Part shown: positions 33,001 to 39,000 of the stretch, one piece after another
Layout: each line of letters opens with the position of its first letter
Numbering within the stretch: position 1 is the stretch's first letter
From: a virus
Length of the DNA stretch: 64,000 nt
UHGV virus genome: UHGV-1440165
Reading direction: 5' to 3' (one strand)
Program-made: the position numbers

Positions 33001-36000
33001 CAATGTTAGAAGCAATTGAGCGGTCCATGTTGGTTATCGCCTCTTGCAATTGCTCTTTGTCTAACAATTCTTCGAACCCTTCAAGATTGGATGTACCCCA
33101 GTTCACAACCCCAGTCGACACAACGTTCTTCAGCTGCTCTTCATTGAATGCGGTTGAGGTTGGATCCCAGAATACTCTGGTGCTGACATCGATGTATGTG
33201 ATTTCAGCATCGACGATCTTAGGGGTGATCGTCCCAACATTGTACTTGTCTAATTTCGCCACGATATCTGCCTTCTCGGCGTCCGATAGCGTCTCACCAG
33301 TAGTAGGGATGACAGCGATGTAGACATAGCCGGAGTCGGGCGGAGAGAGCGTGTCTCCACCATACGCTTTGGCACGAGAGACATTGGAGAACAGACGCTC
33401 AGTCAACACAGCATAATCGACTTCAGCAACCGCCGCACCCTCGGCCTGGTATGCAAGAGGCGCAAGGCGTTTGGTGTCTTCGATTGTCTCTGGGTCTGTA
33501 CCGCCAGAAGATCGTTCGGACACCAACTGTACGTCCACGAGGTTGAACCCGCCGATAGAAGAGGCTGAAGTCAGCATTGTGATGTCATTGCCAGCCGTAC
33601 CAGATGTCTCCAGGTATTGCAGATACACAACATTCCCGTCTTCCACTCGCTTGCAGATATATCCATCTCCGAATTCGAAGGTGTACATCCCGTCCAGCCC
33701 GAGTTCCACAAAGTAGAGCTGTGCGTATTGGCTGAGATCAAACGGGCTGACATATCGAGAGTAAGTGCTTGTCGCATCGGCTGTGTTGGATTCTGCAACC
33801 TGAACAACCATGTGATTGATGTCGACGAGCGATGAAGGGATCACATAAGACGTAATCGCACTGCCTTCAACATCATATGACTTGTACAGCCAGTTCCCCT
33901 GAATGAGTTTCAGGTTCTCGAATTTGTAAGAGCCATCTACCAGAGTTGCACTCACAGGGGCTTCTACTGTGAAGTTGTAGGACTTGCCGTCCTTCGCTCC
34001 GATGAACATCGCCCGGCGGTCCATGACAATGGTTTCAGGCGCGGTGCTTGGGTCATACGGGGTGACTGTCACATTCGCGTACAGGAACGCCGCCTGGTAA
34101 TTGTTTGGGGTGTAGGAAAGGAACCCCGCCGCCAGCCCGACGTTGGAGCGCTGCTGGGCAGAATGCAAGTGGCTCTCGCCATTCAGCATGTTCTGCATGA
34201 ACCCGACGGCGTTGGCATCCGAGGCCAAGAGACGAACGATAGCACTCAGACCGGAACCCTCAAAGTCATAGTCTTTGAAGGTCGGATCTGCTTTCATTCG
34301 CTTCTTGATAAGGAACTCGAAAGCCCTGACGTCGAGTGAGGGAACTGTTTGTGTGGCCATGTTAATCTCCATCACCTGAGCTTGAATATGGTGTTGAAGA
34401 TATTTAGCCGAACGGGAATGGATCTTCCTCGCGCGTTATATTATTCGATCCTACTCGCTTCGCTCGTAACACCGCCTTGACAGGCAGTCCCATTCCACAG
34501 CCATGGAGGCTGCTTTTCGTTGTTCGTTAACACTCACAACTCAAAGGGCACAGCGATACGATACAGTCTCTGAGTGGTGTAGAAAAGTAGTTTTTGCCTA
34601 TTAATAAACCGCGCTCCTATTTTGTTGGCCTTTAATTCAATAACACCTTCACCAATATAATAGTCCGGTCAATCAACCGTGTATTAAGGAACCTCTCATG
34701 CACATTAACACTGCTATCACGAAGCACATCATCCCTCTGTTGGAAAAATATGAAGGGAAGAAAGTAAACGACATCGATTTTAAAATGATCACGTCGGAAG
34801 TTTTACGCCTGACCAAGAAAGAAGTTAATTTCCGCCGAATTAATCCTTCGGCCATTGATTTGGCGAAGTCTGATTTAAAAGGTGCCAACACCTTCTCTTT
34901 CAACATCGATGACACGTTCCTGCGTAAAGAACTCACGGAGTCATCACAAGCCCGTCGCGACCGCTTCCGCTATTTATGTGTTGAACAAGACATGCCATCT
35001 TCACGCATCGGCATCAGGCCATCCGGCGTTCGCTCCGAGGTTTGCTTTACAGTGAACTATATCCTGGAGCCTGAAACCAGCAACATTTATTTCGCGGCTA
35101 TCATCGGCTTCTATGGCACATCTATTAATGGATGGGCTGAGCGCGTTGAATTAAAAGAGACGCTGAACAAACACAGCACCCCATCTACCCATTATATGTC
35201 GCGTGAAGCTGCTCATGAATATGTGTATCTGCTCGAGCGTGATGTGAAGTTAAATGTGGTAAAATAACGCTTTATTCAATAAATAATTGCAGTAAAGTTA
35301 GTTGCATGGAAGGGAGGGAACACTATGTTTTACATGATGTTACTCCTCATCCTCCTGATCGGGTTTACCTTTACTCTCCTAGGTCTACCCGATCAGTCTG
35401 GTAAACAGTCGCCCACTTCGGCGCATCCGGTTTTGAGTGAAGGTTCGTCCGCACTGCTGTGGGCAGTGTAGCTCAAAGAGGAGAGGACTTTTCAAATTAG
35501 CTGGACTGTAGTAAAGTATTAAACGTGAGGCGAATAGCGCGGTGGAAGTATGGTTGGGGCCAGAAACCAGGAAAGTCCAGTCTCGGGACACCGTTGTGAA
35601 TAGAGGCGTAATACCCACCTTGCATGGTGTTAGTGGACGCACTGACCGTCGGAGAACGAAACTCCCTGTTGTAGCGTGATTAGCTCAGAAAAACGAGAGC
35701 GCCCCGTTGGCAAGTCGACACCAACATAAGGGGAGGTCGGGGGCTGCTAATCTCCATCACGCCGACAACATTATGAGTCTTCATAGAGGGTTCATAATGT
35801 TGCGTCAAAGGGCAACAAAAGGTTCCTGTTGGTTGAATTAACTTGATTCATAGTTCCTGCTGATCTTCCCGGATTCGAAGGAGCACCAACAGGCGAGGCC
35901 GGATGCGTAAGTTTCGGTGGATTATATCGCGGTGTACACACGGACTGAAGTGTGAACATAGGCAGACGAGGAAAGGCTTCCGGTGCGAAGCTTGCTGGTG

Positions 36001-39000
36001 ATGGTCGGGTTAGCACCTTCTCCTAAGACTCTGCGCTCAACCAGCTGTCGGTTAGATTCCGACCACCGCGAAATAATTTAAAACGATGGTGAGGTGGTGC
36101 ATTGGTGACACGGGGTAGCGCTCAGAAGTGTGGTTCGATTCCACACCCTCGCCAACAAATTAAAGGTTTTGTCAATAACGGGTTACAAAGTATAGTTAAC
36201 CCACTGAACGAAAAGCTGTTTGGGCATTAGACAAACACTTCGATGTGAACCCAGGACATGGCGTCTTGTGCTCAAACAGGTTTTCGTTCTCGTTGCTTGC
36301 GGCTTTGCGGGTTTTAAGAAACAGACCACAAAGATAAATGCAAATGATAACGCTTATCTGGCAGTAGCTTAACAGCTAAAACACCAGTGAGGTCTTCCGA
36401 CTCCTCATAACAAAATTCGGCGCACTAAAAATAGGCGGGAGGGTGTGATTAATAAGCTCCCGCCGACATCTGAGAGGGTACTTGATCGAGGTCGGTATCC
36501 GCTATACGGGATGCTGTAAAATGAATCCACGGAGTGCCCTCCCAGATGTGTCCCATAGCCACATCAGTTTGCAGTTATGCAAGCTTCAATGAGTTAAAAC
36601 ACGCCTCAGGCGTTATGGGATAAAGCCTTAAACAGTGGAATCCCCAGGGCTGGCAATCCCTGTTAAAGAAGTAGCCGTGTGGGGGTCAGCCCCCACAACG
36701 CAAAGTAGAGTCCTCTGGACGTTGAACTTAACCCAAGGGTTGATTCACATGGTGAACGTTCCCGGCGGCGATAGTACAAGATGAGGGGTCATTGAAGTTC
36801 AGAGGACTCCACTTTGCGGCAGGTACTGCAAAACAGTGATCATCCTGACAAGCGTGATCACTCTGCGACAGAGGCATACATCGTGGCTATCAACCACATC
36901 CTCGCTCTAGTGATGAGTGGTGTTATGTTTATGTCGGCCAGCCTCGTTTGGTCCGAGCGTAGAGGACAAGTGCTGAAGTGTGACGAAGACACTGAAAGCG
37001 CGGGTTGTTTAGTGAATCCTGCTAAGCGCAAGGGTTGAGTGGCAAGAAATACCTTTCCGGGTAAGTCAACGTTATTATTCGCCACGATAATGGCATCGGG
37101 AGGCACCCGACACTAAACCGTTTGGCCTAGCGAAAGTAGGCAAGTATCTGGGTCGATCACCTTATCCTCACCCAGATGCGGGTTGTAGCATGGCTACAAC
37201 TCTGATGGCTCTCAAGATTCCATAATGTATATCGGTTGTGGATGACAGGTAAATGAGCGGAAAGGCGAGAGCCATCAGAGTTGTGACCAACCCGATCTTG
37301 CAAGCCCGTATCCCGGTCTGGTTAAGACTTGCAAGTGGAAAGCCCTGGAAAAATAAACGCCTGTTGTGAGGCCACCGTGCAAGCCAATGACCAACAGAAG
37401 CGCATTGCCGTGAGGCAGCACAAAGAGGCCTGCATGAACTGATCATGCACAAACGGGATAAAGGGTTGACAGTCCTTGGTTGGTTGCACAATAATTTGGT
37501 CCTGTAGCTCAGTGGTTAGAGCAGTCGACTCATAATCGATTGGTCATTGGTTCAAACCCAATCAGGATCACCATCATATTTCAATGTTTCCCTAGCTCAA
37601 TTGGATAGAGCATAGGACTTCTAATCCTTGTGTTGCAGGTTCGAATCCTGCGGGAAACGTACCCTTCTGAGTTCCTGAATAAAATAGTGAATGTTTATTG
37701 AAGAATGTGCAGTTAGTATTCAATGCATATCTAACGGGGGACACCCTGCAGATTATTGAGCACATAACATCGCTATCAATTATGCCCTCCGGGGTGAGGA
37801 ACTTCAAATGCGTAAAAACATTGCCATTGCCATTGTCGGTTTAGCATTATCAGCCTTGGTGTTCAACGCCAATGCTGCTCTGTATCTCAAATCATCAGGT
37901 GACCAGTGGAGCGCGGCGATGGCCGACCTTCAAAACGGTTACAACGAAGGCGTTTCTTCCAACAAGTTCAACCGTTTTTACGCGGTGCTGGGCCAGCGCT
38001 TTAGCCTGGATAACTCCACCAAGGAAGACATCCTGAACATGTTTAAATCTGGTTCTGTTAATGTCTGGGATCAGAATACTGTCAACACTCACCTGAACAA
38101 CTCCGGGGGTGGAAACACGGGCGGCGGTAATAGCAGTGGGAGCAACAGCGTCGACAAAGATGAATATGCTGCTGATAAAGCAGCGCAGGCCGGAGTGGAC
38201 GCCGTCCAGGATACTGCCATCGCTGGGAAAGTCGACAAAGATGAATTCAAAACCGACCAAGATCGCCAAGACGATGCGCTGTCAAAAGAAGTTCAGGAAC
38301 GTAAAGATGGTGATAAAGTCCTGAGCGACCGTATTGACGGCAAAGTTGACAACAGCGACTTCACGGCTGATCAGAAACGTCAAGACGATGCGCTGGCTCA
38401 GGAAACAACTGACCGCCAGTCTGGTGATCAGGCGCTCAGTGGTCGCATTGATACCAAAGTCGATCAAACGACCTACGACGATGACAAATCGACACAGTCT
38501 GAAAAAGACAGATCTCAGGACGGTAAGATCTCTGTCGCTCAGGGTACTGCGAACGTCGCTCTCACCACTGCGGGTGTTGCTGTCGCCAAGGCTGACAAAG
38601 CCCAAGACACAGCCAACCGCGCTGAGTCAAAGGCTAATAAAGTCCAAAGCACTGCAGATACGGCTGTCGTCAAAGCTGACAAAGCCCAAGTGACCGCCGA
38701 CCGCGCTGAGTCAAAAGCCGATTATGCAATTGCTGGCGTTGACAATGCGTACAGTTACATCGAGCAGACTCGTGACTCCCTGAACAACACAAACAAATCT
38801 GTTGCTCAGAACAGTCACGACATTGCCAATCATGAAAAGCGCATCGGCGACTTAGAACGTCAGGTGAATACTGGGTTCAGTAATCTGCGCAAACAGATTG
38901 ACAAAGTAGAGAAGAAATCCAATGCGGGTATCGCCGGGGTTGCTGCCATGGCCAACATTCCTCAGGTGACTGAGTTCCAATCATTCTCAGTGGGCGCTGG

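Follow-up and report, generated by a model that had tools for sequence, protein, structure and literature searches.

The tRNA island of the virus genome UHGV-1440165, an Agtrevirus-type member of the Ackermannviridae, opens with a gene-free stretch of about 2 kb that is bounded by an open reading frame (ORF) of 48 amino acids (aa) at 35325-35471 and by a tRNA-Met gene at 37498. Coordinates refer to the window, the whole stretch of 64,000 nucleotides (nt) of this genome that was analysed. The middle of the gene-free stretch is occupied by a predicted + strand RNA (36203-36549) that has the anatomy of the mRNA-like domain of transfer-messenger RNA (tmRNA), including a short tag frame, and that carries no recognizable tRNA-like domain (TLD); we refer to it as the tag RNA, and to the unit that it shares with other phages as the tag module. 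As an earlier reading of the DNA (the sequence-only reading) had proposed, the stretch is non-coding, is rich in conserved RNA structure and adjoins tRNA genes; its RNAs lie on the + strand.

A flanking 189-aa protein is 100% identical to a protein on an IMG/VR contig of 159,985 bp, and the nearest records are Salmonella phages pSal-SNUABM-02, SKML-39 and P46FS4 and Shigella phage Ag3. The downstream neighbours of the stretch are tRNA-Met(CAU) and tRNA-Arg(UCU) (37498-37660, + strand), and Rfam at gathering thresholds finds the five tRNAs and nothing else.

Absence of genes and excess of helices

The claim that 35480-37497 holds no credible ORF was borne out: the longest overlapping ORFs have 107, 85, 82 and 74 aa and lie mostly on the minus strand, where the longest are without a Pfam match, and the 74-aa ORF on the + strand has a single match, at 14.7 bits compared with a cut-off of 25 bits. 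That the stretch consists of unannotated small protein genes is scarcely credible; some records do annotate ORFs of 30-70 aa across it, but these are not conserved, their one Pfam match is far below the cut-off and unconvincing, and a check for codon-like conservation in relatives found variable columns without 3-nt periodicity and indels mostly of 1-2 nt.

All seven helices listed by the sequence-only reading are present (7/7), several of them within longer inverted repeats (arms of 27, 23, 22 and 17 nt). Helix 37200-13/37267-80 sits in the 23-nt arms and 36700-17/36800-17 in the 22-nt arms, with a complementarity of 91% in each case; 35825-33/35885-93 is paired in every one of 18 relatives, 36434-41/36457-64 makes up the second stem of a pseudoknot that covaries, 37297-304/37328-35 is a portion of a conserved 10-bp stem, 36678-85/36690-97 is kept in four sequences, and 37146-53/37170-77 is a perfect 8-bp match in the window sequence. 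Helices are in excess of chance, with 31 perfect 8-mer stems within 150 nt compared with 4.2±2.7 (maximum 14) in 200 dinucleotide shuffles; in four coding stretches of the same length taken from the flanks the number is 5-10, which is the chance level. The minimum free energy z-score of 35472-36470 is -3.6, and local 250-nt thermodynamic z-scores do not distinguish the stretch from coding DNA, so that the case for structure rests on comparison and not on thermodynamics. Compensatory changes were sought in related phages and found in the tag module and in two other RNA domains, cassettes A and J, described below.

A tmRNA-type tag frame and its structure

The tag RNA is the core cassette of the stretch and has its own promoter, a sigma-70-like TTGTCA-16-TATAGT (10/12 matches; 36169-36196, + strand) that lies inside the stretch and ahead of the RNA. 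The tag frame (36340-36372, + strand) begins without a start codon at the resume codon GCA (36340-42), encodes ANDNAYLAVA (GCA AAT GAT AAC GCT TAT CTG GCA GTA GCT TAA; compare the E. coli tag ANDENYALAA) and ends at the stop codon TAA (36370-72). This tag was overlooked by the sequence-only reading, whose statement that the region could not be matched to tmRNA was wrong for the mRNA-like half. The 92 distinct modules of our alignment (A1) use 16 versions of the tag, each with 10 codons and of the form AN[DE]xx[YF]LAVA or ...LMAA. Positions 1 and 2 of codons 1-3 and 10 are invariant in 92/92 modules and position 3 varies (in codon 10 through all four bases), and the tag is closed by TAA, TGA or TAG, never by a sense codon. 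Ahead of the resume codon, the A at -4 is invariant and the U at -5 reaches a conservation of at least 90%; they correspond to A86 and U85 of tmRNA, on which the setting of the reading frame depends (PMC2481249).

The structure tested on A1 was drawn by hand; its elements, all on the + strand, are a hairpin that precedes the resume site, then helix 5 and two H-type pseudoknots. The hairpin (36303-36333; CUUUG 36303-07 with CAAAG 36329-33, 85-91% of cells paired) replaces the equivalent of pseudoknot 1 (PK1) of tmRNA, and the match to tmRNA architecture is thus partial; a PK1-like pairing of CAGUUUU with GAAACUG was tried and is unsupported by the variants. The helix 5 analogue (36358-36387) holds the stop codon in its loop, is 99.7% and 78% paired, and shows a compensatory change from GC to AU. 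Pseudoknot a (36388-36420) pairs 36388-92 with 36403-07 and 36397-400 with 36417-20, and 7/9 of its pairs are compensatory; pseudoknot b (36421-36464), with the conserved loop AUUAAUAA, pairs 36421-25 with 36443-47 and 36434-41 with 36457-64, is 99.6-100% paired and has 9/13 compensatory pairs. The module is closed by hairpin X (36466-36549, + strand), an inverted repeat whose 5' strand is homologous in all lineages and whose interior is variable. Over the whole structure 91.7% of cells pair, compared with at most 48% when partners are slid; compensatory changes are seen at 20/39 pairs, and covariation scores 0.165, a value that slid partners approach only to 0.077 at most. The observed covariation score, percent paired and compensatory counts were matched in 0/500 shuffles, and the count of "further pair types" did not exceed that of shuffles.

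A TLD was looked for in several ways. ARAGORN, run on the window and on representatives of 44 genomic contexts, calls no tmRNA, and a permissive scan with the tmRNA clan over all 64 kb finds no separate TLD. The Rfam tmRNA models give 15.9 bits (RF00023) and 23.4-29.2 bits (RF04321), with gathering at 47, and these scores are driven by the tag region; RF00023 aligns over model positions 56-294 of 374, its interior only. Felixounavirus has a near-consensus promoter (TTGACA-17-TATAGT) whose end is about 7 nt ahead of the module, and a tRNA-Arg(UCU) begins about 195 nt further on, so that there is no room for a TLD between them. The tRNA-like sequence downstream of the module in Felixounavirus Alf5, tried as a TLD, proved to be a degenerate tRNA-Arg(UCU) that is intact in other Felixounaviruses. 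On this evidence we do not class the RNA as a tmRNA; it would function like the coding half of one. Databases list phage tmRNAs as either standard or TLD-only, by searches that depend on the TLD (PMC4131195, PMC11915505), and in the literature on phage tmRNA, tmRNA-like RNAs and the pairing of small RNAs (sRNAs) with tmRNA we found no description of such an RNA.

A 5' arm resembling antisense of host tmRNA

The 5' arm of the module (36280-36315, + strand) resembles antisense of E. coli tmRNA nt 70-104. It starts with GTTTTCG, the most conserved motif of the module (invariant in 92/92) and exactly complementary to CGAAAAC, which spans the E. coli tag codons gaC GAA AAC; CGAAAAC itself occurs in none of the 92 phage modules or their tags. 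The 45-60 nt ahead of the phage resume codon were aligned locally with the reverse complement of E. coli tmRNA, the ssrA sequence having been confirmed in 5416 genomes. In 9/9 lineages tested with a full 5' region the best alignment falls at tmRNA nt ~68-106, a segment that runs from the 3' half of PK1 through the A-rich linker, where U85 and A86 lie, and the resume codon to codons 2-6. The window arm scores 27 compared with 15.2±2.3 in shuffles (p=0.002), and the arms reach 26-42 compared with 15±2.2, with p<=0.002 in 7/9 lineages. Antisense of the host tmRNA is matched far better than antisense of the module's own tag region (means of 28.4 and 12.1), the host score being the higher in 92/92 modules. 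The predicted transcription start of Felixounavirus and of MK54-type siphoviruses is no more than about 0-7 nt away from the arm. In the window, a long hairpin with 27-nt arms (36206-36289, + strand) holds GUUUUCG in its 3' strand; 20 bp of it are conserved in 15 sequences, with two compensatory pairs.

Such an arm could belong to an antisense inhibitor or decoy that forms a duplex with host tmRNA, leads to RNase III- or Hfq-dependent decay, or titrates S1, SmpB or RNase R, and whose tag is never translated. The arm is complementary to the host resume site and, in Felixounavirus and MK54, occupies the very 5' end or a place close to it, like the seeds of sRNAs; prophage anti-sRNAs are known from the same Q-to-lysis region (bioRxiv 10.64898/2026.05.13.724894), and the TLD-only RNA of phage DS6A offers a precedent for a partial tmRNA as inhibitor (PMC4131195). 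The codon-type conservation, however (variation at position 3 only in codons 1-3 and 10, three different stops, a fixed length of 10 codons), argues for translation, as does the invariance of the A86 equivalent, and we consider an inhibitor unlikely, if far from negligible.

Spread and mobility of the tag module

Only about 36299-36427 is common to unrelated phages in distant BLAST matches (72-84% identity). The module occurs in 683 of 50,697 GenBank phage records, in Ackermannviridae, Felixounavirus, podoviruses of ~70 kb, SSU5-like phage-plasmids and siphoviruses of ~46-49 kb that infect Klebsiella, Escherichia, Salmonella, Vibrio and Cronobacter; it is unannotated in nearly all listed records and lies under a "hypothetical protein" in a few. 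A pattern scan of IMG/VR places it on at least 120 contigs. Of 5426 complete E. coli genomes, 137 contain it, and in the two lambdoid prophages examined its place is between the Q antiterminator and the holin gene. In Felixounavirus and MK54 the module directly follows promoters equivalent to that of the window.

In pSal-SNUABM-02 an HNH endonuclease gene (2387-2863 of locus L001) is inserted exactly at GTTTTCG, and the 13 nt of window 36279-36291 are duplicated on both of its sides. The tag allele beside this gene is ANDSEVLMAA instead of ...YLAVA, a switch that suggests co-conversion; HNH genes also lie beside the module in other Kutterviruses and in Felixounavirus Alf5, and homing with co-conversion is a plausible route of the module between phage families.

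A tRNA-Arg(UCU), often together with tRNA-Met(CAU), is found repeatedly just 3' of the module in unrelated phages (loci L007, L016, L023, L048 and L063; window 37498-37660), and in the ~47-kb siphoviruses the module is followed by tRNA-Met(CAU) and tRNA-Arg(UCU) as in the window. Because AGA is a rare, stall-prone codon, this linkage may be functional. A Sib antitoxin RNA (98.6 bits) was also seen about 200 nt from the tag module on a 7-kb IMG/VR contig (L051 1709-1862 and 2062-2252, both on the minus strand).

A mosaic of RNA cassettes

Matches to the whole stretch are found by megablast in 293 phage records, of which only 11 cover at least 80% of the query. When 12 Ackermannviridae loci are mapped onto the window, breakpoints recur at about 35917, 36080, 36156, 36467, 36704, 36828, 36937 and 37268, and they delimit about ten hairpin-closed cassettes (A to J, + strand) that are present, absent or replaced independently among Ackermannviridae. 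Cassettes B (35921-36077) and F (36699-36818) are each bounded by an inverted repeat and hence are self-closing units. The internal promoter at 36169-36196 is conserved in Det7, Serratia 3M and Dickeya phage LIMEstone1, the last of which retains only this promoter region, a 30-nt piece and cassette J. In LIMEstone1 (L003 3020-3470) a different ORF-free sequence of ~400 nt is seen at the position of the tag module, the homologue of the promoter and cassette J being kept. The breakpoint pattern, the internal promoter and the LIMEstone1 remnant argue that the stretch is a + strand cluster of separate predicted structured-RNA genes in a stable-RNA island, not one RNA gene.

The sequence-only reading had favoured one large structured RNA. 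The conserved structure that it proposed stands; a single RNA of the GOLLD/ROOL type is not supported, given the mosaic, the internal promoter and the module shared with unrelated phages. A giant modular RNA of this type, spanning about 35.5-37.5 kb with the cassettes as its peripheral domains, would account for the high helix density, the adjoining tRNA genes, hairpin-closed units that behave as indel units, as they do in large RNAs, and the lack of + strand terminators inside the stretch other than one weak terminator-like site at 36902-36920. It is nonetheless improbable: there is no shared core (LIMEstone1 and Serratia 3M keep fragments and cassette J only), the internal promoter is conserved, the central module occurs alone in unrelated phages, and the alignments hold no long-range helices that join cassettes. 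Nor is there an Rfam match, GOLLD, ROOL and other large RNAs being unmatched in 35200-37700 at E<=10 and in the whole window at E<=1; RNase P and group I and II introns, to which the sequence-only reading could not match the region by eye, were likewise unmatched by their models at these settings.

Besides the tag RNA, two cassettes are conserved domains. Cassette A (35472-35917, + strand), a multi-helix RNA domain of ~440 nt, is confined to Ackermannviridae; its 18 distinct homologues are 78-90% identical, and of 106 predicted pairs 15 are compensatory (45 cells), compared with at most 6 with slid partners. Cassette J, directly 5' of tRNA-Met, contains a closed multi-hairpin RNA of ~207 nt (37282-37488 within a cassette of 37268-37497, + strand) that is conserved across all Ackermannviridae genera examined; its 18 distinct sequences are 78-94% identical, and of 49 predicted pairs 9 are compensatory (47 cells), compared with at most 2 with slid partners, three of them in the closing helix 37282-92/37478-88. 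Both structures were predicted from the very alignments on which they were tested, so that percent paired is inflated and the compensatory counts are the meaningful figures. Variable columns by codon position number 53/53/57 in A and 23/32/24 in J, which is not 3-periodic, gaps are mostly of 1-2 nt, and the G-U share of paired cells (6-15%) is consistent with the + strand. Neither cassette matches an Rfam family, even at E<=10 (35200-37700), and BLAST of the non-tag cassettes, A included, against E. coli genomes gave no match. We regard A and J as new putative structured RNAs that are well supported by covariation. Two readings of parts of cassette A were rejected: an RNase P-like one, since the motif concerned (GGAAAGUCC) belongs to a hairpin that is local and covaries, and the RNase P models give no match, and one of GGGGCUG at 35741 as the 5' acceptor strand of a tmRNA, since it forms the loop of a covarying hairpin and has no CAGCUCC partner.

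The other cassettes are more restricted, all on the + strand. The rest of cassette E (36550-36704, including the hairpin 36678-97) is common to Kuttervirus and Agtrevirus relatives only, and its fold is predicted from sequences too few for covariation. Cassette F, a 120-nt hairpin formed by its inverted repeat, occurs in Agtrevirus relatives only; cassette G (36828-36936) is a block common to L001, L009 and L010 with 96.5% of cells paired and one compensatory pair; and cassette I (37191-37289) is an inverted-repeat hairpin with 23-nt arms.

tRNA-shaped units

The sequence-only reading had noticed a T-arm at 36129-47 and called it isolated; the T-arm is real and not isolated, since it is closed by GGCGAGG (35891-97) and CCTCGCC (36148-54) into a tRNA-shaped unit without an anticodon arm (unit C, 35891-36158, + strand). 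In Det7, unit C has no insertion and measures ~105 nt, and the window copy is split by a 163-nt insertion, cassette B, which is itself tRNA-shaped (unit B, 35921-36077, + strand, nested in C): it has a closing inverted repeat (35921-34/36064-77) with the acceptor-like stem CGCGGUG/CACCGCG, a D-like hairpin and a T-arm (36049-65), and as a block it is present or absent among relatives. The 3' half of unit C is missing from several relatives, and the unit is missing from close relatives that retain the tag. A third unit (37007-37118, + strand; GUUUAGUG-AAU...UCGGGAGGCACCCGA-CACUAAAC) resembles STnc100 (RF02076), matching model positions 30-148 of 206 at 34.8 bits, below the gathering score of 47, with E=2.7e-5 in a 2.5-kb search and 6.9e-4 in the whole window. 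STnc100 is a known prophage sRNA related to PasD (bioRxiv 10.64898/2026.05.13.724894); the tRNA-shaped look-alikes 3' of the tag in siphoviruses and prophages have no STnc100 match at E<=0.1. None of units B, C and 37007-37118 is called by ARAGORN or by the Rfam tRNA model, their folds showing acceptor-like, D-like and T-arm elements only, and we infer that they may act as RNase P/Z-type processing signals or as sRNAs.

Units of this shape raise the question of a split tmRNA, in which the tag RNA would be the coding piece and a phage tRNA-shaped unit the acceptor piece, the candidates being 37007-37118, units B and C, or the UUGUGGUG...CACCACAA unit 3' of the module in siphoviruses and prophages. 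Two-piece tmRNAs occur in nature (PMC11915505), three tRNA-shaped units lie within the 2-kb stretch itself, and in siphoviruses and lambdoid prophages such units adjoin the module, some of them ending in NCCA. We nevertheless consider this quite unlikely: no unit has G3:U70, the CCA is not conserved, the units are not beside the module in Felixounavirus, B and C are missing from close relatives, and no conserved complementarity was found that would join the pieces. Known coding pieces, moreover, carry the 5' acceptor strand, which the tag RNA lacks, and STnc100 and PasD have been described as Hfq-bound, base-pairing sRNAs. In a permuted two-piece tmRNA the acceptor piece (T-arm, 3' acceptor strand, CCA) precedes a coding piece that opens with the 5' acceptor strand; this order is not seen at unit C either, where CCTCGCC-A follows the T-arm at 36129-47, no GGCGAGG lies downstream, and the partner is upstream at 35891.

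The tRNA-shaped remnants, HNH insertions and mosaicism, together with the odd or undetermined tRNAs that relatives annotate in or beside the stretch, might also be expected of functionless debris, made of decayed tRNA and tmRNA fragments and homing-endonuclease scars. This is very improbable, given compensatory changes that preserve helices, motifs that are invariant across six phage lineages and the coding signature of the tag.

Several further elements were observed. Further downstream, 40001-40089 (+ strand) is a tRNA-shaped gene ("tRNA-???" in ARAGORN, 54 bits with the Rfam tRNA model, acceptor UGCUUCA/UGAAGCA-A-CCA) with the 31-nt element GCAGGAGAGCTTCGGAAGAACAAGGTGCCTG in place of an anticodon arm; a lambdoid prophage of E. 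coli O26 carries the identical 31-mer within the tRNA-shaped unit 3' of its tag module (L137 ~5281-5311), and variants of it occur in Det7 and pSal-SNUABM-02. A pairing of the extended arm of this gene (UCGGAAGA) with the pseudoknot loop UCUUCCGA was tried and rejected, as Det7 and pSal-SNUABM-02 alter one side only. In siphovirus and lambdoid loci (for example L137 4920-4985 and 5165-5275) a hairpin cassette recurs that has conserved closing strands ACAGGTAAGAGCATT ... AGTGCTCTTTCCGTTGTG and variable interiors, and it sometimes stands in tandem around the tag module. The tRNA island also contains a 444-aa ORF (37808-39142, + strand) whose product combines a signal peptide and long repeats rich in Asp, Lys, Gln and Ala with a C-terminus (...GYTVGAGISYGW) that resembles an outer-membrane beta-barrel anchor, unusual cargo among tRNA genes. 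Elsewhere, 4945-5015 (minus strand) gives weak sub-threshold Rfam matches to istR (25.6 bits) and to the 3' end of RsmY (22.9 bits), which are probably just a terminator-like hairpin.

Proposed mechanism

The best overall explanation, which we hold with about even confidence for and against, is an RNA cluster whose central member is a headless tmRNA with an arm that resembles antisense of host tmRNA. We hypothesize that the cluster would be transcribed together with the tRNAs and then cut into pieces, the tRNA-shaped units serving as RNase P/Z-type signals. The 5' arm of the tag RNA would base-pair with host tmRNA and mask its A86, resume codon and first codons, the phage resume site would thereby be tethered beside host PK1, and the phage tag, in place of the host's, would be read by ribosomes that host tmRNA-SmpB has rescued, in a "piggy-back" swap of tags. 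Homing endonucleases that insert at the invariant GTTTTCG could help the module to move between phages. Arm pairing followed by tag swap is to us the most likely mechanism, yet a tentative one; and that many enterobacterial phages and prophages encode a headless tmRNA that re-templates host trans-translation with ...[YF]LAVA or ...LMAA tags is a proposal we make slightly more hesitantly still.

Several observations weigh against this explanation. The conserved hairpin ties up GUUUUCG in cis in the window, in Ackermannviridae and in some siphoviruses; there the first 10-27 nt of the arm pair with an upstream strand that resembles a degenerate host-type tag (36206-32/36263-89), so that the arm would need to be released first. 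The complementarity of arm and tmRNA is broken by bulges of 2-5 nt, is weak in SSU5-like modules (scores of 18-21, p=0.016-0.076), was compared with E. coli tmRNA only, and was noticed after many possibilities had been examined. LIMEstone1 is without the tag module. What a swap would gain is not evident, since the phage tags retain the appearance of ClpXP/SspB degrons; the tag RNA may have a tRNA-like partner that went unrecognised; and RNA ends, processing and co-transcription are inferred.

The widespread occurrence of a tag RNA with an arm complementary to host tmRNA suggests that many enterobacterial phages may tamper with ribosome rescue. tmRNA is viewed as universal and self-contained, and because searches depend on the TLD a tag-only form would be invisible to them, which may explain why annotation is lacking in prophages of pathogenic E. 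coli and in hundreds of phages, among them therapy candidates (Felixounavirus, Kuttervirus and Klebsiella phages). If the tag RNA does pair with host tmRNA, it would be the first known viral factor to act directly on the template of trans-translation, an RNA-guided reprogramming in which host and viral RNAs form a natural hybrid two-piece tmRNA and ribosome rescue is naturally re-templated in trans; it would then become possible to test what makes some phages dependent on tmRNA and in what way the template is loaded into the ribosome. Whether or not this mechanism holds, the region contributes the new RNAs A and J and indicates that phage "tRNA islands" are broader stable-RNA islands, shuffled by homing endonucleases.

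Comparison with known systems

The tag RNA shares with tmRNA (SsrA, RF00023) a resume GCA without a start codon, the A at -4 and U at -5, a 10-codon AND...[YF]L..A tag, a stop codon in the loop of helix 5 and H-type pseudoknots downstream; unlike tmRNA, it has no acceptor stem, T-arm, G3:U70 or CCA, falls below Rfam gathering, and has two pseudoknots only and an additional 5' arm antisense to host tmRNA. As proposed here, it resembles in principle the two-piece tmRNAs of alpha- and beta-proteobacteria and cyanobacteria (RF01849-51, RF04321), where the coding RNA is likewise not covalently joined to the aminoacylated end and base-pairing holds the two together. There, however, one gene encodes both pieces and the coding piece provides the 5' acceptor strand, whereas the phage RNA lacks that strand and its proposed partner is the complete tmRNA of the host.

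Phages with half a tmRNA have a precedent in the TLD-only RNA of mycobacteriophage DS6A (the "no CDS" forms), a type of molecule that inhibits host tmRNA (PMC4131195, PMC11915505); the tag RNA is its mirror image, DS6A keeping the tRNA-like half without a tag and the tag RNA keeping the tag without the tRNA-like half. In lambdoid prophages the module occupies the same niche between Q and lysis genes as the sRNAs STnc100, PasD, AgvB and AsxR, which also pair with host RNAs, but it matches none of these Rfam families, has a translatable tag, and has tmRNA as its proposed target. The stretch as a whole resembles GOLLD and ROOL in being long, ORF-free, helix-rich and next to phage tRNA genes, and differs from them in matching no model and in consisting of independently mobile cassettes instead of one conserved architecture. 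Species 1 and 2 RNAs of T4 are stable non-tRNA RNAs that are processed from a phage tRNA cluster; like them, the RNAs of the window are small, predicted to be stable and placed among tRNAs with which they are probably co-processed, in a cluster that is far larger.

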